A stretch of 64,000 nucleotides of DNA, taken from NCBI GenBank assembly GCA_015059335.1, contig SVAP01000001.1, forward strand, positions 66,244 through 130,243. The letters are read 5' to 3'. Made by a program: the position numbers and the translations under genes. This document shows, piece after piece, positions 2,995-48,721 of this stretch. The stretch comes from Bacillota bacterium (GTDB lineage: Bacteria; Bacillota_I; Bacilli_A; RF39; UBA660). How positions within the stretch are numbered: position 1 is the first letter of the stretch; every line of letters starts with the position of its first letter. Under the pieces are notes generated by a model. It saw only the letters and a list, made by a program, of their open reading frames with translations, was not told the DNA's origin and searched no databases.

Positions 2995-3146
2995 TATCTG
3001 ATGAAAGATTAGAAATAATATTTTATATTATGAATAAAAAAAATATATCAATTGAATTAATTAAATCATTATTTGAAGTTGATAACTTAAAAGAAATAAG
3101 TAAGGGACAAGCAGTTGCATTGGAAAAACTTTTAGTAATTTTATGA
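2991..3146 (+). CDS. small coupled ORF (51 aa) of unknown function
   Basis: ATGA overlap with the DnaB stop and ATGA overlap with the recombinase start; coupled on both sides. Confidence 0.4.
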   Translation: MISDERLEIIFYIMNKKNISIELIKSLFEVDNLKEISKGQAVALEKLLVIL

Positions 3147-3781
3147 GAAATTATTATCCCAGAAAATATAAAAGACCATCTAGTAAAAATGCAACTCTTC
3201 CACTTAAAAATCGAAATGATATAAATATAATTTTAAACTATTGGCTTCAAAAAAGAGAACATTCTAAATCTGAAGTAAAAAGATTCCAAGCACACAGAAA
3301 TTATATGATTTGTTTATTAGGATTTAATACTGCATTTAGATGTGAAGATTTAGTACAACTTTATGGTAAAGATGTATCAAAAGGGTTTATAAATATTATT
3401 GAATTTAAGACAGGCAAATCACAGGTCTTTAAATTAAATAAAAAATTATATATAGAAATTATTGATTATATAACAGAATATAACATAAAAGATTATGATT
3501 ATTTATTTCCAATAAAACCACATGGTACAAAACCAATTACAAGACAGAGAGTGGATGATATTTTAAAAGAAATGTCAAAAGATATAAAACTTAATAGACC
3601 ATTCTCTGCACATAGTATGAGAAAAACATTTGCGTATCATAAATACGTTGAAACTGGTGATATTTATAAGGTCCAAAGAATGTTAAATCACCGTGATCCA
3701 TCAACAACTTTACTTTATATATGTTGGGATTCTACTGGCTCTGAAATCGAACGAGAACAGACTTATTTTGGACTAATCTAG
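3143..3781 (+). CDS. tyrosine recombinase/integrase, catalytic domain only (212 aa)
   Basis: motifs of the phage integrase family: AFRCEDLVQL (Arg I region), HSMRKTFAYH (H-x-x-R), LLYI (catalytic Tyr region); no N-terminal core-binding domain; translationally coupled to replication genes. Confidence 0.75.
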   Translation: MRNYYPRKYKRPSSKNATLPLKNRNDINIILNYWLQKREHSKSEVKRFQAHRNYMICLLGFNTAFRCEDLVQLYGKDVSKGFINIIEFKTGKSQVFKLNKKLYIEIIDYITEYNIKDYDYLFPIKPHGTKPITRQRVDDILKEMSKDIKLNRPFSAHSMRKTFAYHKYVETGDIYKVQRMLNHRDPSTTLLYICWDSTGSEIEREQTYFGLI

Positions 3782-32566: not shown

Positions 32567-32606
32567 AAAAGCTAGTTCTCTTAATTGAGGACTAGCTCTT
32601 TTTTTA
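32567..32606 (+). terminator. rho-independent terminator after lysis module
   Basis: AGCTAGTTCTC / GAGGACTAGCT stem (1 mismatch) followed by TTTTTTTAT. Confidence 0.6.
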
Positions 32607-32668
32607 TTGATTTTTATTATGATAACATATATAATAACCTTATATACTTATTTTACAGGGGTGATTAT

Positions 32669-33409
32669 ATGTCATTACAAGTTTATTATGATAATATATA
32701 TAGTGCAAAAATCAATGGAAAAAACATGAAAGTCTTAATACTATATAATATATCCGGAAACCATTATGTTGGGTTCCCAGTATATGATAAAGAAAAGAAA
32801 AATACTATTAAGATAAAGTCTATTAACAAATATATTAATATAGATGAAGTAATGGATATTTCAAAAAATTCAATCAAGTCATTAATATATATAAAAGGGA
32901 AACCGTTAAAAATTTTATCTAAAGAAAGAAATTATATAAACAAAAAATTGAAAGATTCTTTAGTATCAAAAATTGAAAATGGCATTAATCCTCAAAAACA
33001 AGAGGACTTATCATATATAAAATGGGTAAAAAAAGTATTAGATTTAAATACTGCTTCAATAAAAATGCAAAACTTAAAACCTAGACAAATATATTGGGTT
33101 GATTTTGGTTTTAATGTTGGTTCAGAGTTAAGAAAGTTAAGACCAGCAATTTTATGGAGAAGTACTGCCGATAAAAAAGTTTGGACAGTTATACCATTGA
33201 GTACAAAATGCAAACAAGACAATTACTATTTTCATTATGATTTATTATCAGTCAATGACTGTTCAATTAAAGTTGAATCAATGATGAATTTTAGTTATAA
33301 AAGAATTGAAAGTGCTTATTTTGCTAAAAATGTTAAAGCATATATAAATGATGATGACTTTAATAACATAAAAGAAATTTTAAAAAAATATTATACATTT
33401 ACATTTTAA
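32669..33409 (+). CDS. MazF/PemK-like toxin domain fused to roughly 120-aa N-terminal extension
   Basis: PRQIYWVDFGFNVGSELRKLRPAILW matches the PemK/MazF core (GDIVLVDF..GSEQ.G.RPAVV); SD aggggtga; no adjacent antitoxin-sized ORF. Confidence 0.5.
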   Translation: MSLQVYYDNIYSAKINGKNMKVLILYNISGNHYVGFPVYDKEKKNTIKIKSINKYINIDEVMDISKNSIKSLIYIKGKPLKILSKERNYINKKLKDSLVSKIENGINPQKQEDLSYIKWVKKVLDLNTASIKMQNLKPRQIYWVDFGFNVGSELRKLRPAILWRSTADKKVWTVIPLSTKCKQDNYYFHYDLLSVNDCSIKVESMMNFSYKRIESAYFAKNVKAYINDDDFNNIKEILKKYYTFTF

Positions 33410-33742: not shown

Positions 33743-33916
33743 ATGAAATCAAGAATATTAAAAGACTATCAATTACAATGTTTTAAAAGAGATATTAAAG
33801 TAAATAGTGATAGTATAATATTAACTGTTAATGATGAAAAAAAGAACGCATATTACGTTCTTGATGGTTCTACGAAACACAGAATTGATTACTGGTATGC
33901 TGTGTTATATTTTTAG
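33743..33916 (+). CDS. small protein (57 aa), possible partner of the convergent LytTR gene
   Basis: SD gagggggaataat; preceded by direct repeats ATTCGAC. Confidence 0.35.
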   Translation: MKSRILKDYQLQCFKRDIKVNSDSIILTVNDEKKNAYYVLDGSTKHRIDYWYAVLYF

Positions 33917-34234
33917 TTTTTCGTTAAAATATTTTTCAATCTTACAACTGTATTTATCTGATATAGTATCTATGTGTTCATCGTTAATTAGTTTAGCTTT
34001 TTTCTTTTTATTATCATAAAAAACAATATTATCTAAATTTAATATACAAGACTTGTGAACTCTAATAAAATTATCATTTAAAAGTGGTTCAATATGTGAT
34101 AATGGTAATCTAATGTTATAATTTTGTTCTTTACATTGGATTACTGTTTTTCTTTCCATAATTAAAAAATACATTATGTCTTCTGTGTTGAAAGCGTAGA
34201 ATCTTTCTTGGTCTCTTAAGTATATTTTTTCCAT
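33905..34234 (-). CDS. stand-alone LytTR-domain DNA-binding protein
   Basis: FIRVHKSCILNLDNIV is the LytTR hallmark (compare FIRVHRSYIVNLDKI); 109 aa with no receiver domain. Confidence 0.65.
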   Translation of the reverse strand: MEKIYLRDQERFYAFNTEDIMYFLIMERKTVIQCKEQNYNIRLPLSHIEPLLNDNFIRVHKSCILNLDNIVFYDNKKKKAKLINDEHIDTISDKYSCKIEKYFNEKLKI

Positions 34235-34299: not shown

Positions 34300-34500
34300 T
34301 TAAGTGAATCCCCCTGGGTTTTGGTAAACAACTTGAGAAATTGATGTAATATTTTTAAAATCCAAACAATTAGCAAGTGCTCTATTAACAATTACATTTC
34401 CAACCATCAACATTCCTAAGTTGCCTTCACCAACAGCTTCAGCCCTCATAAGTCGAGCTAAAAGATCAACTTCTTTTTCATTATAACTAATTATTGCCAT
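34300..34500 (-). pseudogene. truncated CwlJ/SleB-like cell-wall hydrolase fragment (66 aa)
   Basis: LLARLMRAEAVGEGNLGMLMVGNVIVNRA matches the SleB/CwlJ N-terminal motif; a full-length protein would be about 140 aa or more. Confidence 0.5.
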
Positions 34501-34602
34501 TTTACCACCTAATATAATATATGTATATCATTTTTAATTATGTTTTCGATAAATATATTGTATAAAAAAAAACTTTATGTTATAATCTTATTATATTTAA
34601 AC

Positions 34603-34641
34603 AGGGGTATAGTTTAATGGTAGAGCGACGGTCTCCAAAAC
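34603..34641 (+). other. tRNA 5'-half-like fragment (copy 1) ending in core GGTCTCCAAAAC
   Basis: acceptor/D-arm-like AGGGGTATAGTTTAATGGTAGAGC plus anticodon-arm-like sequence, with no matching 3' half. Confidence 0.5.
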
Positions 34642-34838
34642 TCTTGTTATTGAGAGATTAAATGCCAATTTAACCCTTATAAACATTGACTTTGTTAAAA
34701 CTACCCTTTCAAAGTGTGGTCACCTTTGGTGGCAAAGTCAAAAAAATAGTTCAATATAAAACGAACTGAAACAAATAAAAAAATGTTAAAAAACACAATA
34801 AATGTGTTATAATAAGTTTGCTCTAAAAAGAGCTTTCT

Positions 34839-34877
34839 AGGGGCATGATGTAATGGTAACATAGTGGTCTCCAAAAC
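34839..34877 (+). other. tRNA 5'-half-like fragment (copy 2) ending in core GGTCTCCAAAAC
   Basis: AGGGGCATGATGTAATGGTAACAT...GGTCTCCAAAAC; no T-arm or acceptor complement downstream. Confidence 0.5.
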
Positions 34878-35161
34878 AGCTAACAGGGGTTTAAATTTTT
34901 GAAGAATAAAAACGCCACAAAACCTTATAAAATAAGGAAAGTTAAAAAAATCAATTGTTGAAATTTTAAAAAATGTACGAAAAAAGTACCAAAAATGTAC
35001 GAAATTGCTTAATTAATGTTAATTTATCTTAATTAAAATCAGTTAATTTAGTCCATTTTTTATCGTTATTTTTGTTTGTACATCTTGATTAAAAATGATA
35101 AATCATATATAATAAAATCACTTTTTAAAAATTAATTTTTTTCTAAAAGTAATTTGTTTAT

Positions 35162-35235
35162 AGGGAATTAGTTTAATGGTAAAATTTCGGTCTCCAAAAC
35201 CGCGGTTAAGTGTTCGACTCACTTATTCCCTGCCA
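35162..35235 (+). tRNA. tRNA-Trp (anticodon CCA)
   Basis: hand-folded: acceptor AGGGAAT/ATTCCCT, D-arm GTTT-AATGGTA-AAAT, anticodon loop CTCCAAA (U33, CCA, A37), T-arm AAGTG-TTCGACT-CACTT, discriminator G, encoded CCA. Confidence 0.75.
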
Positions 35236-35245
35236 CTGAAAATTC

Positions 35246-35287
35246 ACGATTTAATCTTTAAAATTAGGGATTAAATCGTTTTTTTAT
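35246..35287 (+). terminator. rho-independent terminator after tRNA
   Basis: ACGATTTAATC / GATTAAATCGT stem plus TTTTTTT. Confidence 0.6.
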
Positions 35288-35363
35288 ATTCATATAAAAA
35301 TAGACTTGCAATATCTTTCGAACAGAGTTAACATACAAACGATGATAGAAAGGAGTTTGCAAA

Positions 35364-35600
35364 TTGAAAAAATTAACAAAGTATTATACTATAAATGAGG
35401 GAGTCTTAACTTTATATAATGTCATTGAAGCTTTACAGAATTTATTTGATGGTTCACTACCAGATGACATTAATATTATCGTTGATGATTTGATTAACAA
35501 GTGTTCTGAAAACTTAGATATTGAGGAAGAAAAACTAAAGAATATTGATATGGATACAGAACTTGTAAGAAAAAGAATTTATGAAATATCAAAAGAATAA
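35364..35600 (+). CDS. hypothetical protein
   Basis: 78 aa; SD aaaggag. Confidence 0.45.
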   Translation: MKKLTKYYTINEGVLTLYNVIEALQNLFDGSLPDDINIIVDDLINKCSENLDIEEEKLKNIDMDTELVRKRIYEISKE

Positions 35601-35710
35601 GTATATATATATTATACAAATGCTACTCCCCTGTTTTATTTTAAACATAAAAACTTGTTTTAGATTGTAAAAAACATTAAAATATATATTAAGAAAAGGA
35701 AAGTTAAATT

Positions 35711-35935
35711 ATGAATAATACTAGATTAAAAGAATTAAGGACTAAAAATAATTTCACATATCAGATGATGGCGAATGAATTAAATGTGAGTAAAACATTT
35801 TATTGGCAAATAGAACACGGTGTTCGAAAGTTATCATATAAAATGGCATTTGATATTGCTAGAATATTTGGATTAAAACCAGATGATATATTTTATGATG
35901 AATTTTTAAATTATAATGATGAAGTTGCTTCATAA
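35711..35935 (+). CDS. XRE-family HTH regulator
   Basis: LKELRTKNNFTYQMMANELNVSKTFYWQIEHGVRKLS HTH_3 pattern; SD aaaggaaag. Confidence 0.6.
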   Translation: MNNTRLKELRTKNNFTYQMMANELNVSKTFYWQIEHGVRKLSYKMAFDIARIFGLKPDDIFYDEFLNYNDEVAS

Positions 35936-36011
35936 TTATATTGATAATTAAAAGAAAGTAAAAATATTATTATTTTATTATTTTACTTTCTTTTTGTTTT
36001 ATTAAACAGAA

Positions 36012-36284
36012 TTATTTTTTAGTTGATAAAGTTTCAATAAAGTTTATAACCTTGTCTTTATCACTTTGTGATAATAAATAATATTTATCTAATTCATGTG
36101 ATTTACCAACTAAATAATCAATTGAACATCCTAAAACTTCACTTAATCTATATGCAATAGGAAGTGAGGGAATACGAACTTTTTGTTCATATGCCTCAAT
36201 AGATGAGTTACTAACTCCTACAAGATGTTGTAATTTTACTTGTGAATAACCTTTTTTTATTCTTAAAGTTTTAAGATTGGACAT
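36012..36284 (-). CDS. XRE-family repressor divergent from the cargo operon
   Basis: LKTLRIKKGYSQVKLQHLVGVSNSSIEAYEQKVRIPSL HTH_3; the track ORF extends to 36446 but the N-terminal extension looks like translated promoter DNA. Confidence 0.55.
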   Translation of the reverse strand: MSNLKTLRIKKGYSQVKLQHLVGVSNSSIEAYEQKVRIPSLPIAYRLSEVLGCSIDYLVGKSHELDKYYLLSQSDKDKVINFIETLSTKK

Positions 36285-36458
36285 ATCAATTTTTTTCTTT
36301 AATATACTGAATTCTTCCCTATTATTTCTCACTATATACCACCTAATACTATCATAAATTAAAACAAACTTACAAAATCTTACACCAAGTAAGACAAAAG
36401 TAAAAAAATATGATATAATATTTTTGTAAAAAAATTTAATAATCAAAGTGGTGATTAA

Positions 36459-38327
36459 ATGATAGATTATAATGAGTTAAGAAAACGACTTGAATATGAA
36501 AATACTATAAATAATTCGAAATCAGAACTTAAAAAAGTTGAAGATTTAATAATTGAAATTGAAGGTCAATTAAATAATCTTGGAACAAAAGAGAATAGTT
36601 TAGAAATCGTTAAAAAAAACAATACAATAATAAATAAATTGTTTAATAATAAAAAAATTAAGGAACGAATAAAGATTGCCGAAAAAGATGTTGATGAATT
36701 TGTAAAACTACATGGTTCTAAAGAAGAAATCCAAACTAAACTGAATGATTTATATGAAAAAAAAAGATATTATGAAACATTAATAAAATCAATGGATAGT
36801 TCTAAATCTTTTGATAATAATCTTGTCGAAATGAATGAAGATGGAATTTTAGTAATCGATGCCGATAAGCATAATAATGTTGATATATCATATGGTCAGG
36901 AGGGAAAATTAAATAATGATGAATTTATGCTAGTTCACTCTACTGGGCATTTTCCTGATAATCACCAAATTTTATCTGGATATGATGGTAACAAAATTGA
37001 TAAAGAAAATACTTCATCAGAAACAGTAGAATTCGAATATGAAGGAGTAAGGAAAAGTTTTCCTAATTATTCTACAAGAAGAACAACTCACTTTATTTTA
37101 AATTCAGTTGTTCAAGACCATGGATTTGGAAAATTTGGAAGCGAATATATTGTGTTGGAAAATGCAAAAAACCATTCTGGCGAAATAAGAAGAAAAAGTG
37201 CTGGGGACACATGGATTCCACATTCGGTAGAAATATCTGATGCATCTATTCTTATGGTTAGACATGATGTCTATGACAAATTAACTGAAGAACAAAAAAA
37301 CATGTATAAAATAATTATATATAAGGGCGATAAAAAGAGAGCAGTAGAATTACTTTTAAATTCAATGGGATATAGTGCTTTAGAATATAATATAAACGAC
37401 ACTGGACACTCTCTGTCATCCGATATAAAAATAGAAGGAAATTTGAAAGCAAGAAACATTGTTATGAGTTATATAAACAATTATAAAGATTATTCAAAAG
37501 AAGATTTTTCTATTTCATCAGAGATGATGTCTAAAATGTTTGACGTCTGGTTTAAAGGTCATGGCGAAGGTAAAAATTCAAAAATGATATGGCGTGATGA
37601 TGAAAAAGTGAACAATAAAATTATTGAATTGTGTAAAGAAAAAAATATTGATCCCAATTTATTAAATTTTTATATTAAAATGGGTATAACATATGAAAAT
37701 GGAGTTTATAAATCACTACAATATGAGCAAATTTATAATTTATACGAATATTTTGATAATGAAGAAATTAATGTAGATTTTATTAATAATTATATAGAAA
37801 GTCAACATTTGCAAATTATTCAACAAAACATTAATAATAGTTCTATATTAGCAACTAAAACTAATAATGATGTTTCTAATATGAAGTTTGAGGATATAAA
37901 CAAACTAGAAAATTTAGATTACAGTAGGAATTTACAAATTCAATTAAACCAAGTAATTAATAGTATAAATGGTTTATTACATGCTGGTGGTGCAAATGTG
38001 TCTTTTACTGAAAATGGGTTAAAAATAAATTTGACAACTGATTATAATAATTTAACTAATTATGCTAATGAAGAATTTAAATTTTATCCTACAAAAGAAT
38101 GTGTTTCAGGTAATGATAAATGGAAAGAAGTAACTTTTATTATTGATTGTAAAGGATTAACATATCATGAAATTATTGATAAAGTTAAAAACTATGTTCA
38201 CTCAGTTAACAATAGATTATCATCGTCTATTTCAAAGTCAGAACAAATTGAGCAGTTAAAACAGTATAAAGATGAATTAACTAACACCCAAAAGATAAAT
38301 GTTGAAGAAGTTAGAAAGGGATTATAA
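36459..38327 (+). CDS. large unknown protein (622 aa), first gene of cargo island
   Basis: SD aaagtggtga; N-terminal coiled coil; -10 TATAAT at about 36408; no recognised catalytic motif. Confidence 0.55.
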   Translation: MIDYNELRKRLEYENTINNSKSELKKVEDLIIEIEGQLNNLGTKENSLEIVKKNNTIINKLFNNKKIKERIKIAEKDVDEFVKLHGSKEEIQTKLNDLYEKKRYYETLIKSMDSSKSFDNNLVEMNEDGILVIDADKHNNVDISYGQEGKLNNDEFMLVHSTGHFPDNHQILSGYDGNKIDKENTSSETVEFEYEGVRKSFPNYSTRRTTHFILNSVVQDHGFGKFGSEYIVLENAKNHSGEIRRKSAGDTWIPHSVEISDASILMVRHDVYDKLTEEQKNMYKIIIYKGDKKRAVELLLNSMGYSALEYNINDTGHSLSSDIKIEGNLKARNIVMSYINNYKDYSKEDFSISSEMMSKMFDVWFKGHGEGKNSKMIWRDDEKVNNKIIELCKEKNIDPNLLNFYIKMGITYENGVYKSLQYEQIYNLYEYFDNEEINVDFINNYIESQHLQIIQQNINNSSILATKTNNDVSNMKFEDINKLENLDYSRNLQIQLNQVINSINGLLHAGGANVSFTENGLKINLTTDYNNLTNYANEEFKFYPTKECVSGNDKWKEVTFIIDCKGLTYHEIIDKVKNYVHSVNNRLSSSISKSEQIEQLKQYKDELTNTQKINVEEVRKGL

Positions 38328-38342
38328 AAATGGAGGAAAGAT

Positions 38343-38994
38343 TATGAAAAATATAAAAATTAAAAAGTTAGAAAAATATGTGGATGAAGAACATGAGGAA
38401 ATTGTATTTTCAGTGTACAAAAATAAATCAGTGAATTATTATAGTTTTGCCTTTGAGTATGAATTAGAAGAAGGAGAAGGACAATATCCTCTAGAAGATT
38501 TACTAGATAAATTTAGTGTTTCCTGTCATGGAGATTATTATGGACAAGAATTTGAAGAGGATGGTGTAAAAAAAGCTATAGTAGAAGTAATTACATCATC
38601 TGACAGCATTAGAGAATTAATAGATATTTTAAGTTTATCAACGATTATCGATAAACAAGTAAATAATTTTACATTTAAAAATTATGAATATTTAGGTATA
38701 AACTATGGGGATGCAAAGATAATTATTAATGATAAAGAAATTATTGTCCCTATTTATGCAACTAGAAATGTTAGAAATGAAACAGAAACTTTCTGTATGA
38801 AATATCCAGAAGGACAACTTAGCAGTACGTTTAAAAAGGGTTGTGATATATCTGAATATATTAATGGTGATGTAGAATTAGAATATGTAATGTTAGATGA
38901 TTCAAAAGCATTTGTAATATACAAAAAAGATAATCAAGATTATCAATTAGTATATGATATAAAAGGATTTGTTAAAGATGAATTAATTCCGTAA
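38343..38994 (+). CDS. hypothetical acidic protein
   Basis: SD ggaggaaag; internal ATG preferred over overlapping 38299 start. Confidence 0.5.
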
Positions 38995-39009
38995 TTTAGA
39001 GGTGAAAAG

Positions 39010-39432
39010 ATGAAATTAATAGAAGAGAAGATTTTAAAAACTAGTCAACAACATGAGATTAAAAAAATGAAATATATATCAGAAAAATTTGTTGATATCA
39101 ATTATGTGTATGGCATATTATTAGGTTTAAAAAATAATAATGAATTTGTTTTTTATAGCGCATCAGCAAAAGATAGTTATCCATTAAGAGATGGAGGATG
39201 TATTGCTGAATGTAGTTCAATAAAAGAAATAGATGAATTTATACATAAAGTTGATAAATCCGAAAAAGAACAAGGAGCAGATTGGGAAGATATATTTATA
39301 TATGGCAAAATAAACGAAATTAAAATAGGTGTTACGTTTAGATTAGAAGAAAAAAATATTTGGATTAGTTGCCCTATAAATTTTGATTTTGATTTTGAAA
39401 AGTTCCTACTTGATTTAGAAAATAATATATAA
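39010..39432 (+). CDS. hypothetical protein
   Basis: SD gaggtgaaaag. Confidence 0.5.
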   Translation: MKLIEEKILKTSQQHEIKKMKYISEKFVDINYVYGILLGLKNNNEFVFYSASAKDSYPLRDGGCIAECSSIKEIDEFIHKVDKSEKEQGADWEDIFIYGKINEIKIGVTFRLEEKNIWISCPINFDFDFEKFLLDLENNI

Positions 39433-39447
39433 GAGAGATTTTTACAA

Positions 39448-39987
39448 ATGGATGAATTAGTAGTAGAAGTAGGAATGAAATTAACTCAAGATTTAATTTA
39501 TTATCATGATTTATTAGAAAATCATGGATTAAAACTGGTTTTTAGTTGTATTACTCAAGATTTATATTATACAAAGGATAATTTAGAAGGTATGACTGAA
39601 AATCAGATAAAAAACCATTGTATAAGATTAAGGATATGTAATGCTCTTAATAAAGAGAATAATAATACCGATAAAATTTATGAAAAAGAAAAAGAATTGA
39701 TTACCGATGGATATAAAAAGGTGTTCGATACAAAAAAGATTGATTTTCAATATTGTAATGATACAATGAAAAGTAGAGTTCAATTGCAAATTATAAAAGA
39801 TATTGGATTATTAGTTTATTATGATAATCCTGATTATTATAATTATCCACTTGAAGAACAAAGAAACTTATTGTTAGAAGAATTAAACACATATGGTTTT
39901 AATTTTAAAAATACTGATTTAGGATTAGACAAGTTAAGAACTTTATATTATAAAAAAGAAATGTATAGTTATAATCAAAATGGATAA
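39448..39987 (+). CDS. hypothetical protein
   Basis: compact spacing in operon. Confidence 0.5.
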   Translation: MDELVVEVGMKLTQDLIYYHDLLENHGLKLVFSCITQDLYYTKDNLEGMTENQIKNHCIRLRICNALNKENNNTDKIYEKEKELITDGYKKVFDTKKIDFQYCNDTMKSRVQLQIIKDIGLLVYYDNPDYYNYPLEEQRNLLLEELNTYGFNFKNTDLGLDKLRTLYYKKEMYSYNQNG

Positions 39988-40061
39988 TATTTTATTTTTT
40001 GAATAATAATACATATTGTTTTTAAATTTGTTACAATATTTAATAAAAAGGCAGTGATGAA

Positions 40062-40628
40062 ATGAATAAAAAGTATGTAAAAGTAATGTTTGGAACAACT
40101 AGTGGTGCTAAAAGTGATTTTGAATATAAACTTAATGAAGTCAATATTAGTAATAATTGGAATCCGAAAGCAACTAGTGGAAAAGATTTTGGTGGTTTTA
40201 ATTATACAACCGAAGATTGTATATTAAGATGGCTTCACAGAGGTGACACTTTATATGATGTAGAAATACCAAAAGATGCAGAAAATATTAAACTTGATGG
40301 TGCAACAACTATCTATAGAACTAACAAAATAATAATTAAAAACCCAAGAAAAATAACTGATGAAATGGCATTAGAATTTTATAAGATTTCAAACATTCCT
40401 GAAAAGTCTTACTATAAAGCATTAGGTGTTGTTACAATTATGAATTATAAAAAAACAGCTTATGCTATTCTTAAAGACAAAGTTAATTTTGGTAACATTA
40501 AAGAAGTATTAGATGAATGGAATGATTTTATTAGTCATGGTGGAAAAAATGACAGAAAAGACATTAATGGATTTGTTAAAGAAATTAATGATCATTTATA
40601 CAAAATTAAGAATTCTATTTCTGAATAG
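40062..40628 (+). CDS. hypothetical protein
   Basis: SD aaaggcagtga. Confidence 0.5.
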   Translation: MNKKYVKVMFGTTSGAKSDFEYKLNEVNISNNWNPKATSGKDFGGFNYTTEDCILRWLHRGDTLYDVEIPKDAENIKLDGATTIYRTNKIIIKNPRKITDEMALEFYKISNIPEKSYYKALGVVTIMNYKKTAYAILKDKVNFGNIKEVLDEWNDFISHGGKNDRKDINGFVKEINDHLYKIKNSISE

Positions 40629-40663
40629 AAGAAATATTAAATTTTATAGGAGGAATTGTAAAT

Positions 40664-41380
40664 ATGGAAAATGAAGTTTATAATGAAATAATAGAAAAAT
40701 ATCATATTCAAAATTATATGGATTTATTATCAGTGTGTTTAGGTCAAGGAAAGGCACGACAAAAAAAGTTTATAGAATATTTAGGAGATAATGCAGATAA
40801 AGATTTTTCTGTAGATGTTCCAAATGCAAAATTGACTATTGGAAGTTTAACTTTTGATATAGAATTCATTGGTTCTTCATCACAAAGTGATGGAACATGG
40901 TTATGGGCAGATGCTAACAGAAGTTTTATGAAAGAACATACTCAAACAGTTAAACAATTATATAGTATTGGAAAAAAATATAATATAAAGGAATTTTTAG
41001 AAGCAAAATCACAATTATCAACTGAAATTACTGCACATAATATGTCAAAAATTGCTTGTATATTATTAAGTAATAATTTATGTTATTATGCAGGAACTGA
41101 CAGTGGAATAACATTGTCAATGTTTGTTAAAAATTTACCTAGTTCAATATATGAACCAATAGATACTATAAAATTCAATACTATTGTTTTAGAATGTATA
41201 AGTTCATATAATATCAATCATAAATTATTTGTTCAAAGTTTTTTAGAAATGAATAAATGTATCGTTAGTTTTGAGGATAATAAAACAATTGGTACTTGGG
41301 AAAATGGTAATAAATACATTGTAGAATTTGATGAGAACGGTAGAGTTAAAAATGCTAATATGAATATGATTAGTAATTAA
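40664..41380 (+). CDS. hypothetical protein
   Basis: SD ataggagga. Confidence 0.5.
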   Translation: MENEVYNEIIEKYHIQNYMDLLSVCLGQGKARQKKFIEYLGDNADKDFSVDVPNAKLTIGSLTFDIEFIGSSSQSDGTWLWADANRSFMKEHTQTVKQLYSIGKKYNIKEFLEAKSQLSTEITAHNMSKIACILLSNNLCYYAGTDSGITLSMFVKNLPSSIYEPIDTIKFNTIVLECISSYNINHKLFVQSFLEMNKCIVSFEDNKTIGTWENGNKYIVEFDENGRVKNANMNMISN

Positions 41381-41463
41381 TATTATAAAGAAAAAAATAC
41401 TGAATTATTTAACATTAAATTTAATACTTCAGAAGAAAATTCAAATATACAAAAATTTTCCAA

Positions 41464-41495
41464 AGAAAAGTGCAATAATGCACTTTTTCTTTTTG
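41464..41495 (+). terminator. rho-independent terminator
   Basis: AGTGCA-ATAA-TGCACT followed by TTTTTCTTTTT. Confidence 0.55.
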
Positions 41496-41667
41496 AAACT
41501 ACACTACTCTATTATATTCAAAATCACTTTTTGTAAAGTAAATGTTAAAAAGCTGTATATTATTTTAGATTTTAATTATTTTTGATATAATGTAACTGTA
41601 ATATCATTAATGTTAATTATCAAAGTGAAAAATAAAGTTAATTATATATTATGAAAGAAAGTGAAAT

Positions 41668-42213
41668 ATGTATTCAGTAGAAGAAAAAGCAATTAAGTTT
41701 GTTATTAAAGCATTTGAAAATAAAAAAAGAATTAAAGAAAATATTAATTTATCATTTCATAGTATTTCGGTTGGTTTTATGTTGAAAGATATTGGCTGTG
41801 GTGAGGATGTTGTTGTTAGTGGATTACTACATGACATTATAGAAGATACTAATTATAATTACGACTATATATTAAATATGTTTGGTAAAAATATTGCCGA
41901 TAATGTTCTTGCACTTTCTGAAAATCAAAATATTACAAACTTTAAAGAATGCAAATTAGAATTTATAAATAGATTGTATAATCAAAATAAAAATATTATT
42001 TTAATTGAAGTTGCAGATAAATTACACAATTTGCTTTCTGATTATAATTTATGGAAAGAAAAAGGTAAAGATGCCCTATCAACATTATCGACTACTTATG
42101 AAATGAACAAATGGTATTATTTAGAAATGAAAAAGTTATTTAATGATAAGTTAGATAAAAATAATAGTTTATTGGTAAGATATAATGAGATTTGTGATTT
42201 ATATTTTAAATAG
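41668..42213 (+). CDS. small alarmone hydrolase (RelA/SpoT-type HD domain, Mesh1/SAH-like)
   Basis: HSISVGFML...VVVSGLLHDIIEDT...FGKNIADNVLALSE matches the (p)ppGpp-hydrolase HD signature (H...AALLHDvvEDT...FG..va.lV); 181 aa with no synthetase domain. Confidence 0.7.
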   Translation: MYSVEEKAIKFVIKAFENKKRIKENINLSFHSISVGFMLKDIGCGEDVVVSGLLHDIIEDTNYNYDYILNMFGKNIADNVLALSENQNITNFKECKLEFINRLYNQNKNIILIEVADKLHNLLSDYNLWKEKGKDALSTLSTTYEMNKWYYLEMKKLFNDKLDKNNSLLVRYNEICDLYFK

Positions 42214-42272
42214 TAAAACATGTTTATATAATGATTTGTATGACAATATATTATATCAATAAGGAGAATTGT

Positions 42273-43355
42273 ATGATGAATAAAAATGATAAAATACGTG
42301 GTTCTTTAATAGGTGGTGCAGTTGGTGATGCACTTGGATATCCTGTAGAATTTGCTAATTTTTTAAAAGATAAAGAGGTAACTAGATTTCAAGATAAAGG
42401 AATAATATCTGATGATACACAAATGACATTGTTTACTGCTAACGCATTAATATGGAGAGAAACAAGAGTTAATTTAAGAGGCATTGCAATGCAACCTTCT
42501 GACGCTATTTTCCTAGCATATAAAGATTGGTATAGTACTCAAAGTAATTATGACAATGAAAACTCTATTTCATGGATAAAAATATTACCTGAATTGAATG
42601 TACAAAGAGCACCAGGTAATACCTGTTTAAGTGCTTTATCATCAAATAAAAAGGGAACAATAGATGAACCTATAAATAACAGTAAAGGTTGTGGAGGTGT
42701 CATGAGAGTTGCACCAATTGGGATGTATATAAAAAATCCAGAAAAAGCAGGAATAATTAGTGCAGAAGCAAGTGCTATAACACATGGACATGCTCTTGGA
42801 GTAATTCCTGCCTATGTATTTGCTGTATTAATAAATTATTTAATAAATAATGATATTAGTATTGAGGATGCTCTTAATAAATCAATGGATTTGTATAATC
42901 AAAAATTCAATAAATATGAATTAAGTGATAAAATCGAATTTATTAATATTATTCAAAAAGTAATTGAATTAAGCAAGAAAAAAATATCAGATGTAGAGGC
43001 AATTAAATTAATTGGTGAAGGATGGGTTGCTGAAGAAGCATTTGCAATAGCAATTTATTCATGTTTAAAATATCCTAATAGTTTTGAAGATGCTATTGTG
43101 TGTGCAATTAATCATGGCGGAGATAGTGATTCAACAGGAGCAATTGCAGGTAATATTATGGGGGCGCATTTGGGATATTCTAAAATACCAAATTACTATG
43201 TTGAAGACTTAGAACTAAAAGATGTTATATTAGAATTAGCAGATGATATGTCAATAGATGTGCCTGTATCAGAATATAAGGAAGATAATGATAAATATTG
43301 GTTAAGTAAATACCTTTATTGCAGTAGAGATATAAATTTAAAAAATAAAGGGTGA
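42273..43355 (+). CDS. ADP-ribosylglycohydrolase (ARH/DraG family)
   Basis: N-terminal GAVGDALGYPVEF and GIISDDTQMT; C-terminal HGGDSDSTGAIAG; all are canonical ARH motifs; SD aaggaga. Confidence 0.7.
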   Translation: MMNKNDKIRGSLIGGAVGDALGYPVEFANFLKDKEVTRFQDKGIISDDTQMTLFTANALIWRETRVNLRGIAMQPSDAIFLAYKDWYSTQSNYDNENSISWIKILPELNVQRAPGNTCLSALSSNKKGTIDEPINNSKGCGGVMRVAPIGMYIKNPEKAGIISAEASAITHGHALGVIPAYVFAVLINYLINNDISIEDALNKSMDLYNQKFNKYELSDKIEFINIIQKVIELSKKKISDVEAIKLIGEGWVAEEAFAIAIYSCLKYPNSFEDAIVCAINHGGDSDSTGAIAGNIMGAHLGYSKIPNYYVEDLELKDVILELADDMSIDVPVSEYKEDNDKYWLSKYLYCSRDINLKNKG

Positions 43356-43359
43356 TAAG

Positions 43360-44568
43360 ATGGAAATAATTAAAGAAAAATCAAAGAATTGTTGTATATT
43401 TAATAAACCAGAGTTAGAATTTAAAGAAAATAAAGATTTTAGTGTAGTAAAGGAATATGGTGAAATACCAGCACCAAATAACTGTACAAGAAATTTATTG
43501 AAATGTAATAAATGTGGAGCACTTTTTCTATCACAGTCTTTGGAATGGAACATAGATGGAAATGATAATTATTATACCGACTATATTCAAGTAAAAGATA
43601 TTATAGAAGCAGATAAGTTAAACAATCAATTGGATGCTTTAAAATTTAGAAACAAGAATAATCCCATGATTATGATTGATAGTGATAATACAGTTCGATA
43701 TATATTCCCAGAATCTAATACTAATGATGAACAAGAATATGCAAAGGAATTAGTTGAAAATGCTGAAAAAATAATTAAATCTATAGAACAACAAGAATCT
43801 GAACAAGTCAATGACCAATCTAAAAAAATCATTGATACAACTGTTAAAGTTGAAATTGATAAGAACGAATACGATATATTAAAAAAACTTGAACAAGAGT
43901 ATATGGATTTTGAATTTGTTGATTTTGCTATAAAACTTTATAGTGGTAGTGTTATACCAATAAATCATCCAAATTATAATGATGATAGAATTGATATAGA
44001 GATTTTTGGATTAGATAAATATTCTATTAATATTAATGGACAAAAATATAATATTAATAGTCAACAATTATTTAATAAAATCAAATCATTTGTTACAAAT
44101 AATCTAGATACATTAATTAAATGTTCAAAAGCACAAAATAATTTATATTTAAATTCTAATTCCTATGAAGGTGGAAATTCTAGTTATATTAAAATAAAAT
44201 ACGGACAGTTAATCATATATATTAATGGACAAGTAAGCGGTAATATTGGGAATTTTTGTGAACAATTTATTGATATTGTTAAAAAACTAATTATTGATGA
44301 GGGTGAAAAAACAAATTTTAATTATTTTGATGAAATGATTGGAAAAATTAAAGATGAAAAGAAAACCGACCTTGAAGATGAATTCACAAAATATTGTAAA
44401 CTTTATGAAGAAAAATTTGGCAAAAAAGCATATATTGCTGAACCTGGTGGAACAAAAGAACAAACAATAAATGCAATTAAAATTTGTTTAGAAAAAGATG
44501 AAGATTTATTAGATAAAATACTGTATCCTACTGGTGATGATGACATAAATAATAGAGTAATGTATTAA
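43360..44568 (+). CDS. hypothetical protein with N-terminal zinc-ribbon-like CxxC...CxxC
   Basis: NNCTRNLLKCNKCGALF; SD aagggtga. Confidence 0.5.
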   Translation: MEIIKEKSKNCCIFNKPELEFKENKDFSVVKEYGEIPAPNNCTRNLLKCNKCGALFLSQSLEWNIDGNDNYYTDYIQVKDIIEADKLNNQLDALKFRNKNNPMIMIDSDNTVRYIFPESNTNDEQEYAKELVENAEKIIKSIEQQESEQVNDQSKKIIDTTVKVEIDKNEYDILKKLEQEYMDFEFVDFAIKLYSGSVIPINHPNYNDDRIDIEIFGLDKYSININGQKYNINSQQLFNKIKSFVTNNLDTLIKCSKAQNNLYLNSNSYEGGNSSYIKIKYGQLIIYINGQVSGNIGNFCEQFIDIVKKLIIDEGEKTNFNYFDEMIGKIKDEKKTDLEDEFTKYCKLYEEKFGKKAYIAEPGGTKEQTINAIKICLEKDEDLLDKILYPTGDDDINNRVMY

Positions 44569-44598
44569 AAATATATACAAAAAAGGAGAAATTTAATA

Positions 44599-45042
44599 AT
44601 GGATGTTTTTATTAAACCGTTAGAAGGAATTATTATTAATAACAAAAATATAAATTTGGGAATGAATAAAGAAGATATTATTTCAATTTTAGGAGACCCA
44701 GAGATAATTTATAATAGGAAATATTGTACTAGAAGTTATTATTATAATAGTGAACTTGCTATAGATTATGATCTAAATAATAATGTAGAGTTTATTGAAT
44801 TTTTAGGTGGAATAGAAGGTAATCTAAATCCTATAATTTACGATTTTTCAATATTTAAAGAAGATGATGAAAAAATAATTAATTTATTAAAAGAAAAAAA
44901 TAAAGGGATTGTTGATGATTCAAATAAACCTTATTCCTATGTTTTTCATAAAATTAGCGTTGGTGTTTCAAAAGAACTTAATAGTGAACAAAAAAATCAA
45001 ATTTCTACAATAGGTATTGGAGTAAAGGAATATTATTCATGA
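44599..45042 (+). CDS. hypothetical protein
   Basis: SD aaaaggagaa. Confidence 0.5.
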   Translation: MDVFIKPLEGIIINNKNINLGMNKEDIISILGDPEIIYNRKYCTRSYYYNSELAIDYDLNNNVEFIEFLGGIEGNLNPIIYDFSIFKEDDEKIINLLKEKNKGIVDDSNKPYSYVFHKISVGVSKELNSEQKNQISTIGIGVKEYYS

Positions 45043-45737
45043 CAAGAGAACAATATAAGCAAAGCGTTAAAGATATTATGATTCACAAAAACCCCTATGG
45101 TGTATATCATCAACAGAATTTTAATACATACCAAGCATATGATGAAATGACTCCTATAAATTCAGATATTATAAATAACATGCCTAATGCATCAATTGTT
45201 TTAAGTGAACAAGTTTATGAAATGTTATTAGCCGTTCAAGAAGCAACAATATCAACAAATCAAGAATTTCCTTTTTTTCTATATGGTAAAGAAACGGGAA
45301 ATAATCAAATAGAATTTACTGAGTTTATGTCAGCAAGTAATAATAGACAAAATGCTGCTGCTAGTTTTAATCAAACAATGTTAAATAATTTGCAAAGTAG
45401 AATTAATGGCAATTTAAATAATGGACTAGTAGTTTGTCATGGACATTCACATCCACCAATAGGAAATTTTCATCAGAATTTTTCACTAGGTGATTTCACA
45501 TCATATATGGAAATGAATCAAGAAAACTCTGTATTCAAAAATAAACAAGTAGAACTTACAAGTTGTTTAGTAACTAGTACAGGTGATATAAATTTTGTTT
45601 TCTATGATAATGCAAATCAAAATTTTTATAGATTTACAAATGTATTTGTTAAAGATGCTAACAATAACTATACACCTGTTAATTGTTATGGTATGAATCA
45701 ATCAGAACAACTAAGCAATGGTGGAATAACAAGATAA
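45039..45737 (+). CDS. putative JAB/MPN-like metalloprotein
   Basis: VVCHGHSHPPIGNFHQNFSLGDF resembles the JAMM motif HSHP...S-x-x-D, but with longer spacing; an upstream Glu is present. Confidence 0.35.
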   Translation: MTREQYKQSVKDIMIHKNPYGVYHQQNFNTYQAYDEMTPINSDIINNMPNASIVLSEQVYEMLLAVQEATISTNQEFPFFLYGKETGNNQIEFTEFMSASNNRQNAAASFNQTMLNNLQSRINGNLNNGLVVCHGHSHPPIGNFHQNFSLGDFTSYMEMNQENSVFKNKQVELTSCLVTSTGDINFVFYDNANQNFYRFTNVFVKDANNNYTPVNCYGMNQSEQLSNGGITR

Positions 45738-45855
45738 ATAATCAATGTTTTATGTATTGATTATTTTTTTTATATTTGTTGTGTAAACTTTTTTGGTTTT
45801 CATTAACAAAAATGCATTTTGTGATATAATTGTTTTATAAGATAGGAGAAATAAA

Positions 45856-46258
45856 TATGTTGGTAAAAAAATTTAAGGAAGATTATATTGATAAAAGTAT
45901 GGTGGAATTAGTAAAAGAAAGAAACAAGATACTTGAAAATATAAAAAATTATGAAGATAAATTTATATTTAATAATCCTAATTATAGTGAGGTTATGTAT
46001 TCAAAACCTAGTCCAAAAACAATGTATGAAATAAATAATGAAGATTTAATAATGTTAACTGAATTAATTATGGAAAAAAATAAAATAGGAAATACAGACA
46101 AATGTCAAAACCTAATTGATGAATATGTAAAAAAATTTGGAGGATTCCCACATTATTTGTTTATGGGGGCAGATGAAGAAATTATAATTCAAACAATAAA
46201 AAATGCATTAAATAGTGGAAAAGAAATATCAACAAGTGAGTCAAATATTGATTATTAA
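45856..46258 (+). CDS. hypothetical protein
   Basis: extended -10 TGnTATAAT at about 45815 and SD taggagaaa. Confidence 0.5.
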
Positions 46259-46293
46259 TGATTATATTAAACTAATAAAGGATGTGAGTAAAA

Positions 46294-47232
46294 ATGTATA
46301 ATGAGTCAATTAAAGCAGAAAATAAAATAATAACTAATAATGATTTAACGCAAATATTTCAAGCAATGGGAGAAACATTAAAAAAGTATCAAAAAATAGC
46401 TATGCAAGAAGAACAAATAAATCAAAATGTAGATTATATGCAACGAGCTTATTCCTTTAAAGATGAAGGAAGTAAAATGAAAGTTACAGTTGATTTTTAT
46501 GATAATACGGATATAACTTTTGATAACTATGATAATTTTGCAAGTATTTTTTATAGTAGGTTAGATGAAATAAAAAGTTTAGATGTATATTATTCATTAA
46601 CATACAATGTAATTACACCAGCACCAGCTAGAAGTAATGAATATTATCATCAATCAATTCAAATGCATATTAACGAAAATAAATTAGATATATCAGTAAA
46701 ATTAAGTAGTCAAGATCATAAACTAGATGATTTATATAATTTAATTAAAAACATAGTATTAAATGCTCCTGAAAAATATGACATGATAATAAAGAAAAAA
46801 AGTTCAATAACAAATACAGTTGCTTTTGCAACTGGTATGATACCTGCAATAGTTATATCAACAATATTATTATTTGTTCCTGGAATAAACACAATATTTT
46901 TAAAAGGATATGTAGTATATCCAATATGCTGTGTGGTTCTAGCATATCTTATAGGAAGTGTTTTTGCATCATCAAAATTAGATAAATATTATAGTCCTAT
47001 TATGCCAGAAAAAAAATATGCTGGATATAGTGATGGACATGCAGTATATAAAGATGATGTGGATAAATTTGTTGACACAAGTGAAATATTAATTGGTAAG
47101 AAAGTTAATAATTTATCTCATAGAAATCAAATACAACAAGAATATAACAAACATAAAGAATTAATACCTAAAGAATTATTAGTATTAATAGTTATATCTT
47201 TAATAGTAATAATTCTAGGATTATTTGTTTAA
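46294..47232 (+). CDS. hypothetical membrane protein
   Basis: C-terminal 3 TM helices. Confidence 0.5.
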   Translation: MYNESIKAENKIITNNDLTQIFQAMGETLKKYQKIAMQEEQINQNVDYMQRAYSFKDEGSKMKVTVDFYDNTDITFDNYDNFASIFYSRLDEIKSLDVYYSLTYNVITPAPARSNEYYHQSIQMHINENKLDISVKLSSQDHKLDDLYNLIKNIVLNAPEKYDMIIKKKSSITNTVAFATGMIPAIVISTILLFVPGINTIFLKGYVVYPICCVVLAYLIGSVFASSKLDKYYSPIMPEKKYAGYSDGHAVYKDDVDKFVDTSEILIGKKVNNLSHRNQIQQEYNKHKELIPKELLVLIVISLIVIILGLFV

Positions 47233-47263
47233 TTATAACAAAATATTAAGTTGGTGATTATGT

Positions 47264-47761
47264 ATGAACTTATTTAACAGAAAATTAAATAGAAATTTAT
47301 TGGTAGATAAATTAATCAAGTATCGTAAAGAAAATGAATACAATGATAATAATTATTTTTTAGATTATATAAATATCATAACAGAAGAATTTTCAAAACA
47401 TAAATTTGTTAGTGATTCGGATTTTCTTCTAAAAGGCAGAAGAAAATTTTTAGTTAATGAATTTTATGATATATTAAAAGATGAAGATAATTATAACAAA
47501 AAACATTTCATTGATAATCCACTTTATTTTGCATTAGGTCATATAGAAGAAATATTATTTGGCATTAATACTGTTTATCCTGATGATGTTGATGAAGAAA
47601 AACGTGAAATAACAGAAAATGGAAGTTATAAAATTGCTGGTATATATATAAAAGAAATAAGAGATATAGATGAAAGATATAACAGAAAGAAAATTATATG
47701 TTTAGAAGAAAAACAATTAATAGAAAAAATGATTGAGGATTTTAAAAGTAAATTAAATTAA
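47264..47761 (+). CDS. hypothetical protein
   Basis: SD ggtgatt. Confidence 0.5.
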   Translation: MNLFNRKLNRNLLVDKLIKYRKENEYNDNNYFLDYINIITEEFSKHKFVSDSDFLLKGRRKFLVNEFYDILKDEDNYNKKHFIDNPLYFALGHIEEILFGINTVYPDDVDEEKREITENGSYKIAGIYIKEIRDIDERYNRKKIICLEEKQLIEKMIEDFKSKLN

Positions 47762-47778
47762 AAGAAATGAGGATTAAT

Positions 47779-48435
47779 ATGGAAATAATTGTACAAGGAA
47801 AAGGAAAAGAATTTTTTACTCCAAATGAAGTGACATTAAATTTTACATTTACAATAAAAGGACAAACATATGAGGAAGTTTTAAGAGAAGGTGTCAAAAA
47901 TGTACAATATTTTGTAGATGAATTACTATTACAAAATAATTTTGAAAAAGAGAATTTGAAGACAAGAAACTTTGTAATTAAAGAAGAAACAAGATATGAT
48001 AATTTAACACATCAAAATATTTTTGAAGGATTTTCTTTTAATCAATATGCAACACTAAAATTTGACTATGATAAAGAGAAATTAGCAACTATGATGGTTT
48101 CTATATCAAAATTAGATAATGCACCAATGTGTCAAGTGGACTTTGGTGTTAAAGATGAAAAAGACTGTAGAAAAAAGATATTAGCAAAAGCTTATAAAGA
48201 CGCTGAAGAACAAGCATTGGCAATTGCAGAAGCTGCTGGAAAATGTTTAAAACAATGTGCTAAAGTTGATTTCAAACCATTTACGAGTGATTATCATTCA
48301 AGAGCAAGATATGGTTCTGATATTATGTATGCAGAGAAAGCAGTTGCAGGTGTAGCGCAAACTATTGCTAATACGTTTACTCCAGAAGATATAGTATTGA
48401 CTGAAACGCTATATTGTTTATGGAACGCTGAATAA
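47779..48435 (+). CDS. SIMPL-domain (DUF541-like) protein
   Basis: KKILAKAYKDAEEQALAIAEAAGKCLKQCAKVDF resembles the SIMPL core pattern. Confidence 0.45.
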   Translation: MEIIVQGKGKEFFTPNEVTLNFTFTIKGQTYEEVLREGVKNVQYFVDELLLQNNFEKENLKTRNFVIKEETRYDNLTHQNIFEGFSFNQYATLKFDYDKEKLATMMVSISKLDNAPMCQVDFGVKDEKDCRKKILAKAYKDAEEQALAIAEAAGKCLKQCAKVDFKPFTSDYHSRARYGSDIMYAEKAVAGVAQTIANTFTPEDIVLTETLYCLWNAE

Positions 48436-48456
48436 TTGTTTGACGAGGTGTTTCAA

Positions 48457-48681
48457 ATGGAAATGATTAGTCCTGAAATTTTTAAAGAAAATAATACTAA
48501 TAAAACTTATGATGAATTATTAGAAATAAAGGAAAATATTAAAAATAAAATAGAAATACATGAAAAACTATTAAATGATATTTCATCATCTATTTTTTCA
48601 GAAGAAGATTTGAAACTAATGATAGATATGAATAAATCTTATTTAATTGAAATTGATAAATTAATAAACTCACTAAAATAA
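48457..48681 (+). CDS. hypothetical small protein
   Basis: SD gaggtg. Confidence 0.4.
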   Translation: MEMISPEIFKENNTNKTYDELLEIKENIKNKIEIHEKLLNDISSSIFSEEDLKLMIDMNKSYLIEIDKLINSLK

Positions 48682-48721
48682 TCTTAAGAGTTAAAGGTGT
48701 TTTGTTTAGGAGGTAATGACA

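Follow-up and report, generated by a model that had tools for sequence, protein, structure and literature searches.

A truncated conjugative element in a split host tRNA-Trp gene, with stacked tRNA 5' halves and a complete foreign tRNA-Trp, in a Bacillota genome

Transfer RNA genes are classic landing sites of genomic islands, and by the accepted rule the incoming element repairs the gene that it splits. The stretch considered here, hereafter the window, comprises 64,000 nucleotides from a Bacillota bacterium (GenBank assembly GCA_015059335.1, contig SVAP01000001.1, positions 66,244 to 130,243), in which an integrative and conjugative element (ICE) with genes of a type IV secretion system (T4SS) adjoins three tRNA-Trp-like sequences. 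These share the 12-mer GGTCTCCAAAAC, which occurs in three exact copies at 34630, 34866 and 35189, all on the plus strand, and no extra copy was found in the 64-kb window when one mismatch was tolerated. By chance 0.14 copies are expected in the window, and three copies were reached in 0 of 100 shuffles; no further copy of the 8-mer CTCCAAAA was present from 8.8 kb left of the window through 6.8 kb right of it. Copies 1 (34603-34641) and 2 (34839-34877) are 39-nt tRNA-Trp 5' halves, each made up of the acceptor strand, a D arm whose pairing is preserved by compensatory changes, and the 5' strand and loop of the anticodon arm; both break off at the identical base, after ...AAAAC, so that 2 nt of the anticodon stem's 3' strand are included. 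The third copy belongs to a complete gene. The first-pass annotation had read the three sequences in this way and had proposed a tRNA search as a check, which bore it out: ARAGORN called a single gene across the 64 kb, a tRNA-Trp(cca) at 35162-35235, and the Rfam tRNA model (RF00005; gathering score 29) gave that gene 59.2 bits, with copy 1 below the gathering score at 22.5 bits and copy 2 without a match. Each copy is preceded by its own promoter, as judged from a promoter scan and from reading the sequence. The three-copy arrangement is base-for-base the same in the independent metagenome assemblies examined that span the tRNA region (three samples), and the window as a whole is base-for-base identical to many independent metagenome assemblies.

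The shared 12-mer is nothing other than the conserved anticodon stem-loop of tRNA-Trp. As it is conserved in tRNA-Trp genes generally, its presence in all three copies is no evidence for recombination; the evidence is the identical break point. Among the three 5' halves, pairwise differences affect 8-11 of the 27 positions outside the core, and a degenerate 5'-half pattern found only intact tRNA-Trp genes in viral contigs (120/120 matches). The earlier claim of repeated integration in the anticodon loop therefore stands in so far as the orphan halves are products of site-specific recombination, and falls in so far as it leaned on the shared core.

Copy 1 (34603..34641, plus strand) was traced to the host chromosome. 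A scan of species-representative genomes with its sequence returned 17 loci, and in 15 of them copy 1 is identical over 39/39 positions to the 5' half of an intact tRNA-Trp gene. All 15 are from metagenome-assembled genomes (MAGs) of uncultured gut Bacilli, among them Firmicutes bacterium CAG:884, and the intact host-type gene reads AGGGGTATAGTTTAATGGTAGAGCGACGGTCTCCAAAAC / CGTTAATGTGGGTTC (A or G) ACTCCTGCTACCCCTGCCA, with G at the variable position in 1/15 (locus L157). These related MAGs supply the empty site, attB, whose recovery from strains without the element had been suggested beforehand, and the gene order amidase(LysM) - cwlJ - tRNA-Trp is common to them. A nucleotide alignment of the window with one such locus, L160, is 85% identical and reaches precisely to 34641, where core 1 ends, indicating that copy 1 belongs to the host's tRNA-Trp gene, severed in its anticodon loop, and that the DNA to its right was inserted. 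The alignments thus show the normal chromosome of this low-G+C gut Bacilli host, namely amidase - cwlJ - tRNA-Trp(CCA), and show the host tRNA-Trp here as split inside the anticodon loop, with foreign DNA right of 34641 for about 34.4 kb. Copy 1 forms the B arm and core of attL, its core TCTCCAAAAC (34632..34641, plus strand) being the 10 bp within which, judging from the homology limits, the crossover took place. An extended -10 box, TGTTATAAT, was read upstream of copy 1 (34578..34586, plus strand), within the stretch that is 85% identical to L160, and is taken as the host tRNA-Trp promoter. Although the flanking intergenic DNA is only 85% identical to L160, copy 1 carries 0/39 changes, so that the cut in the host gene is recent.

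The opposite junction is preserved in relatives of the element (L177-L180). A tyrosine integrase closes the element in both L177 and L180, that of L177 being 479 aa long, and the attR of L177 lies about 230 bp past the integrase gene, reading ...ggattttttaaaC TCTCCAAAAC CGCTGATGTGAGTTCGACTCTTGCTACCCCTGCCA tttgaaagattcgaac... It consists of a non-tRNA arm (...ttttttaaaC), the core TCTCCAAAAC, an orphan tRNA-Trp 3' half of host type (CGCTGATGTGAGTTCGACTCTTGCTACCCCTGCCA) and host flank; ARAGORN called no tRNA in this region. Against the intact loci L160 and L157 its homology starts precisely at TCTCCAAAAC and spans the 3' half and about 70 nt of flank. Together with the 34641 limit, this start places the crossover inside the target tRNA gene, in the anticodon loop, and with an integrase beside such an attR the proposal that the T4SS element family uses the tRNA-Trp site is supported. 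Taken together, attL of the window and attR of L177 give the classical B-O-P' / P-O-B' picture with TCTCCAAAAC as its 10-bp core. Read across the two, the junctions show a family that recombines in the anticodon loop with neither junction regenerating the tRNA gene: copy 1 and its core are followed by non-tRNA DNA, and the L177 arm lacks the tRNA-like sequence that an attP carrying a tRNA gene fragment would supply. No relatives of the L177 integrase were found in viral contigs, and searches of phage and plasmid databases for near-identical DNA returned nothing relevant.

The intact tRNA-Trp(CCA), designated type 3 (35162..35235, plus strand; 41% G+C, G73, encoded CCA end), sits 284 bp inside the left end of the element. 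A promoter scan placed TTGATT-17-TATAAT at 35085-35113 on the plus strand, and a 15-pair stem (35246-35279) followed by a T-run forms an intrinsic terminator (35246..35289, plus strand), the sole terminator-like site in the region, with which the tRNA unit ends. The 3' half of this gene (35201-35235) is CGCGGTTAAGTGTTCGACTCACTTATTCCCTGCCA and differs throughout from the host type. Because ARAGORN calls every artificial tRNA chimera and is hence uninformative on this point, acceptor pairs were counted instead, giving 7/7 between this 3' half and its own copy 3 and 5/7 with copies 1 and 2. Its closest database matches are phage tRNA-Trp genes (82-84% identity), and distant database searches with the tRNA region matched only tRNA-Trp genes. 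Downstream lie the terminator and then ICE genes, not the conserved host flank of L160 and L157. The intact tRNA-Trp is thus entirely foreign and AT-rich. As the 3' half is foreign and is followed by a terminator and element genes, a working gene made of an element 5' half and the host 3' half is ruled out.

Between copy 1 and the foreign gene lie two gene-less intervals and copy 2. Interval 1 (arm Y2; 34642..34838, plus strand) is absent from the empty-site MAGs, is 80% identical to DNA at loci L143 and L145, and is regarded as element-derived. It contains GTGGTCACCTTTGGTGGCAAA (34716-34736, plus strand), which matches a tandem motif in the attR arm of L177 with scores reached in 2/500 and 0/500 shuffles and is probably an arm-type integrase site; TGGTGGCA was found just twice in 70.8 kb. 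A GGTGGCA motif stands about 150 nt left of core 2; in the L177 attR it likewise precedes the core, by about 123 nt. Further right in interval 1, all on the plus strand, are a promoter, TTAAAA-16-TGnTATAAT (34786-34813, promoter scan), and a leader hairpin, GCTCTAAAAAGAGC (34820-34833). Copy 2 (34839..34877, plus strand; core 2 at 34868-34877) follows, a 5' half of what we call type 2, assigned by comparison with L143 and L145. The arm also holds TTAACCCTT (34670-34678; TTATCCCTT in L145), at the distance expected of a 3' acceptor strand, possibly what decay has left of a 3' half that attP formerly carried; interval 1 retains at most a decayed trace of a tRNA 3' half (Rfam 22.5 bits).

A metagenome scan with copy 2 returned L143 and L145, not contigs of the window strain. 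These come from a more distant relative (cwlJ 68-71% amino-acid identity) and show, in order, a decayed 5'-half remnant ending GTCTCCAAAAC with a 14-nt deletion in its D arm, a homologue of interval 1 and an intact type-2 tRNA-Trp. The interval-1 homologue is 80% identical and agrees with the window in its promoter, its leader hairpin and the 236-nt distance from core to core. Copy 2 differs from the intact type-2 5' half by 1 nt, and this single change, set against an interval of only 80% identity, was counted as a sign of recent events. In L145 the type-2 tRNA continues directly into a natural host flank, 76.7% identical to L156. Because a homologous unit without an ICE occurs there, the 236-bp unit of arm, promoter, 5' half and core is separable, and able to be fused to a 3' half in the absence of the ICE. 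In the window the unit (34642-34877) lies between cores 1 and 2, has no notable open reading frame and adjoins the ICE. As a separate observation, L143 (read on its reverse strand) and L145 are identical through the type-2 tRNA, diverge right after ...CCCTGCCAGA and each enter a different type of natural downstream flank, which suggests a second recombination point at the 3' end of the tRNA.

Interval 2 (arm Y3; 34878..35161, plus strand), read as the left end of the resident ICE from its sequence and the promoter scan, carries the direct repeats AAAAATGTACGAAA at 34969-34982 and 34991-35004 (plus strand), candidate protein-binding sites. Its similarity to interval 1 is not significant. The start of this arm, AGCTAACAGGGGTTTAAAT (34878-34896), agrees at 11/12 positions with AACAGGGGTATA, the leader and first bases of copy 1. 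Scans of viral contigs with the host 3' half, arm Y2 and arm Y3 gave 0 matches each, and those with the arm motif and with a pattern of core plus Y2 gave chance matches only.

The body of the ICE (35364..64000, continuing to about 68-69 kb in window-equivalent coordinates, plus strand) was recognised from its domains and its collinearity with L177-L180. From the left it encodes a cro/cI-like helix-turn-helix (HTH) pair, an orphan 622-aa protein, strain-variable cargo and SipW/TasA-like proteins, followed by a TED/SpaA adhesin with a sortase, TrbL_4, PrgI-like, VirB4-like and M23 proteins; NikA and a MobL relaxase lie immediately right of the window. Homologues of the relaxase in other metagenomes led to these collinear relatives. 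The relaxase of the window strain's element is 83% identical to that of L177, and the T4SS genes are collinear with L177. VirD4 follows the relaxase in 4/4 relatives examined (L177-L180). Homology to L177 runs out at about 67.98 kb window-equivalent, and the HTH gene at 69247 (about 69.25 kb) is a conserved chromosomal gene of the lineage with 467 homologues; those looked up lie in ordinary host contexts, and its upstream terminator aligns with relatives. This host gene abuts the element, in keeping with a truncation. Neither an integrase nor a coupling protein could be recognised from 34.6 to 69 kb, and the 79.6 kb from -8.8 to +70.8 kb contained no attR, no core beyond the three already described and neither a host-type nor a type-2 3' half. 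VirB4-like, TrbL_4, NikA and MobL proteins are thus present and VirD4 and the integrase absent, so that the element is a truncated member of its family; the tyrosine integrase beside an att site is found in L177 and L180, and the displaced fragment with a repeated core at the far end in L177. Cores at the far ends of the elements, which the first-pass annotation had proposed to look for, are accordingly missing here, the ICE having lost its right end. A single deletion would be the simplest cause: with it the element would have shed VirD4 and the integrase together with attR, the host 3' half displaced to that end and a piece of host DNA, and would have become fixed. In L171 (3873-9807), from another relative, the same host HTH gene is abutted by a different integrative element, with VirD4, a 589-aa tyrosine integrase and an adjacent tRNA-Met, and the HTH-gene region is thus an insertion hotspot as well.

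Taken together, these data probably reflect a family of tyrosine-integrase ICEs that splits the host tRNA-Trp gene without repairing it, with stacked scars, a foreign tRNA and a later deletion of the right end. A plausible course of events can be set out as follows. The tRNA borne by an element shares the anticodon stem-loop and would therefore itself be a target, offering a second attB. A later element would insert there, and excision through non-cognate att pairs would leave an arm, a promoter, a 5' half and a core. Copy 2 with interval 1 (236 bp) would be such a unit, left by an earlier element. The present ICE would have split the tRNA of that earlier element, or a chimera of copy 2 and the host 3' half, and brought the type 3 tRNA with it. 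Deletion of the right end would have come last, fixing the element and leaving the cell to rely on a foreign tRNA-Trp.

Several points weigh against this history. The locus itself has no attR, displaced 3' half or integrase, and the mechanism is read from the relative L177; that the family as a whole carries its own tRNA-Trp would be extrapolated from this window. The two intervals are not detectably homologous, and the L177-type arm motif is present in interval 1, not in interval 2, which makes both the assignment of the arm to the T4SS element and the number of insertion events ambiguous. Moreover, the motif lies left of the core in L177 and right of core 1 here, though about 150 nt left of core 2, and this placement would allow an origin from a 5' half carried in attP for unit 2 alone. 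Finally, the call of a single tRNA-Trp gene covers the 64 kb of the window, and the genome may contain another.

The strongest rival invokes a single integration in this host. Here an ICE resident in the type-2 tRNA-Trp of a former host like L143/L145 would have excised through the older core upstream, taking along 236 bp (interval 1, the promoter and the type-2 5' half) as a specialised transducing phage takes along flanking DNA, and the whole would have integrated as one. The L143 and L145 chromosomes do show the required remnant core, interval and intact type-2 tRNA at 236-nt spacing, units 2 and 3 occur together in all examined strain assemblies that span the region, and the scheme needs one deletion and one integration only. 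However, the motif that interval 1 has in common with the att arm of the ICE implies that interval 1 is itself element-derived, and in ERZ27248370 a 141-mer ending at core 2 is common to two contigs, which hints at a population variant branching at the core 2 junction. On balance a captured flank is unlikely.

Less probable still is the model of the first-pass annotation, in which the attP of each element carries a promoter and a tRNA 5' half and the gene is regenerated from the element 5' half and the host 3' half. There is precedent, though rare, in the 159 of 3919 islands that leave a 5' tDNA fragment in the Islander collection (PMC4383910), each copy has its own promoter, unit 2 of L145 is fused to a 3' half that enters host flank, and the distance of GGTGGCA from core 2 is comparable to that in the L177 attR. 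Nevertheless, the intact gene has a 3' half other than that of the host, with a terminator and ICE genes behind it, the original host half (copy 1) pairs with it at 5/7 acceptor positions, and the core-proximal arm of L177 is no tRNA half. Moreover, the stretches that would have to be these elements measure just 197 and 284 bp and are gene-less. A foreign 3' half that pairs 7/7 with copy 3 only, together with the non-tRNA L177 arm, points instead to a whole tRNA gene having been brought in.

An origin without site-specific recombination is very improbable. Decaying local tRNA duplications or pseudogenes would account for the 12-mer as plain conservation, and the 12-mer is indeed the universal anticodon stem-loop of tRNA-Trp. 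Yet both truncations fall at one base, the halves are as divergent as unrelated tRNA-Trp genes while D-stem pairing is kept in each, and homology to the empty site stops, and that to the L177 attR starts, exactly at the core. Least credible of all is a functional split tRNA, or a regulatory role, in which promoter-driven 5' halves would join separate 3' halves or act as RNAs: promoters are retained at both orphan halves, neither of which shows more than one substitution, but the 79.6 kb hold no 3' half of either type, nothing like a Nanoarchaeum-type split gene and no complementary joining sequences, and the homologous remnant in L143/L145 has decayed, with its 14-nt D-arm deletion.

If probable integration without repair is accepted for this locus, a wider proposal can be made more tentatively, and we regard it as possible but doubtful: replacement of the tRNA gene would be the lifestyle of the family. 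The host's tRNA-Trp, possibly its only one, would be destroyed and a working copy supplied by the element from its own promoter, with addiction-like stabilisation, and, the element's tRNA being a landing site in its turn, stacking elements would shed promoter-bearing 5'-half units. Were this true, scattered tRNA halves of the kind considered in connection with the origin of split tRNA genes could arise in bacteria by this route. The locus also has wider consequences. Island mappers that seek an intact tDNA with a cognate fragment would mis-map or miss such elements. Translation of the host's Trp codons can come to rely on a mobile element, and in this strain the dependence looks permanent, the excision end being lost. 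In addition, the stacked units show a bacterial route by which promoter-retaining tRNA halves originate, a matter of relevance to how split tRNA genes may have arisen.

To the left, the window is occupied by a prophage. The first-pass annotation had taken the tRNA-Trp site for a two-sided hotspot lying between phage and T4SS element, a view that does not hold for the phage side. A 5' fragment of a host cwlJ/sleB-type germination gene for a cell-wall hydrolase (66 codons, Pfam Hydrolase_2; 34300..34500, minus strand) follows the junction of prophage and host at about 34300-34302, and the C-terminal half of this gene, on the minus strand left of the window, directly adjoins a 459-aa large serine recombinase with Resolvase, Recombinase and Zn_ribbon_recom domains at the left end of the prophage. 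The recombinase is thus at one end and halves of the target gene at both. In L160 cwlJ is intact; the halves from the window strain are 92-93% identical to it in amino acids, and the junction falls at the NPGGF codons. The prophage is about 37.6 kb long, comprising 1-34302 of the window and a left end about 3.3 kb to the left of it (L010, 5230-6898). By these features it is an insertion in cwlJ, about 300 bp left of copy 1, unrelated to the ICE and not at the tRNA. The two neighbouring mobile elements, which had seemed to share a hotspot, thus use different targets and recombinase families.

Some further features of the prophage can be recorded. JGI (Joint Genome Institute) contig L009 ends at 34314, at the cwlJ/prophage junction, an end that may reflect excision variants in the population. 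Within the replication module lies a small tyrosine recombinase of 212 aa (3143-3781); 18653-25018 encodes a 2121-aa protein with LPD23 and faint SprT-like matches; and 32585-33409 encodes a PemK-like toxin with an N-terminal extension of roughly 165 aa, a second PemK-like gene adjoining the serine recombinase. A lone LytTR DNA-binding protein (33905-34234) stands at the right end.

Within the ICE the cargo (38916-54700) varies between strains: L002 is identical as far as 38916 and then diverges, L015 rejoins at 53948, and several assemblies break at about 54.65-54.8 kb. An ADP-ribosylglycohydrolase, an HD_4 protein, an N6/N4 methylase and a SIMPL protein are encoded there. The 622-aa protein next to the HTH pair (36459-38327) has no Pfam or NCBIfam match and a single distant homologue (35% identity) among 5.8 billion proteins; as that homologue is a chromosomal singleton, the protein was rejected as a marker of the ICE family. 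Between 53352 and 59405 a SipW-like signal peptidase, BsaA/TasA-like proteins, a Flg_new protein, an 820-aa TED/SpaA thioester adhesin and a sortase are encoded, a group that has the appearance of a self-contained module for a surface fibre or adhesin, placed upstream of the T4SS genes.

Integration into tRNA genes is a well-charted field, and Williams in 2002 reportedly gave a classification with an anticodon-loop sublocation. The Islander survey counted 3919 islands, 3760 with a 3' and 159 with a 5' tDNA fragment, 2083 anticodon-centred sites and 125 tandem arrays (PMC4383910). The present locus resembles such tDNA islands and ICEs in its anticodon-loop crossover flanked by the stem, the tyrosine integrase beside attR in a relative, the short junction core TCTCCAAAAC, the displaced tDNA fragment at one end and the occurrence of tandem arrays. 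It differs in that the standard attP carries a tDNA fragment which regenerates the gene, whereas here neither junction does so and about 10 bp are shared. In addition, the window element carries a separate, complete tRNA-Trp with its own promoter and terminator just inside attL.

Members of the ICESt1/ICESt3 family of Streptococcus thermophilus accrete with cis-mobilisable elements (CIMEs) at one att site, the 3' end of fda. As in those CIMEs, a gene-less unit lies between two att cores beside an ICE with the same core, and tandem integration with later excision through alternative att pairs can account for it. In the window, however, this putative CIME-like unit measures no more than 236 bp (arm, promoter and tRNA 5' half), and the site is a tRNA anticodon loop rather than fda. 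A second parallel is the tRNA-Thr(GGU) of Caldiarchaeum subterraneum, where a 5' fragment lies 1.8 kb upstream of a different intact tRNA-Thr, with a recombinase-encoding mobile element between them, as inferred from population heterogeneity in metagenomic clones (PMC3293823). Both loci have an orphan 5' fragment of one allele upstream of a different intact allele, with mobile DNA between. However, that case is archaeal, concerns intron gain and has its recombinase between the copies, whereas the present one is bacterial and has two successive fragments, a T4SS ICE and no recombinase left. With regard to transfer functions, the type of the MobL family of relaxases (PF18555) is the relaxase of pLS20, and the element shares with MobL conjugation systems of Firmicutes a NikA-like accessory protein before MobL, a VirB4-like ATPase, a VirB6-like TrbL_4, PrgI-like and M23 hydrolase proteins and a sortase-anchored adhesin. 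Unlike pLS20-type plasmids, it is chromosomal by virtue of the tyrosine integrase of its family and lacks a coupling protein in this copy; no nucleotide match to it was found among PLSDB plasmids. Anticodon-loop integration, tandem arrays and islands with 5' fragments are therefore already known. A bacterial element that splits a tRNA gene while carrying a complete replacement was not found described in the literature, which is weak negative evidence. What is new would be the combination of an attP that does not regenerate the gene with a complete replacement tRNA, and the stacked, promoter-bearing halves follow from these two properties.

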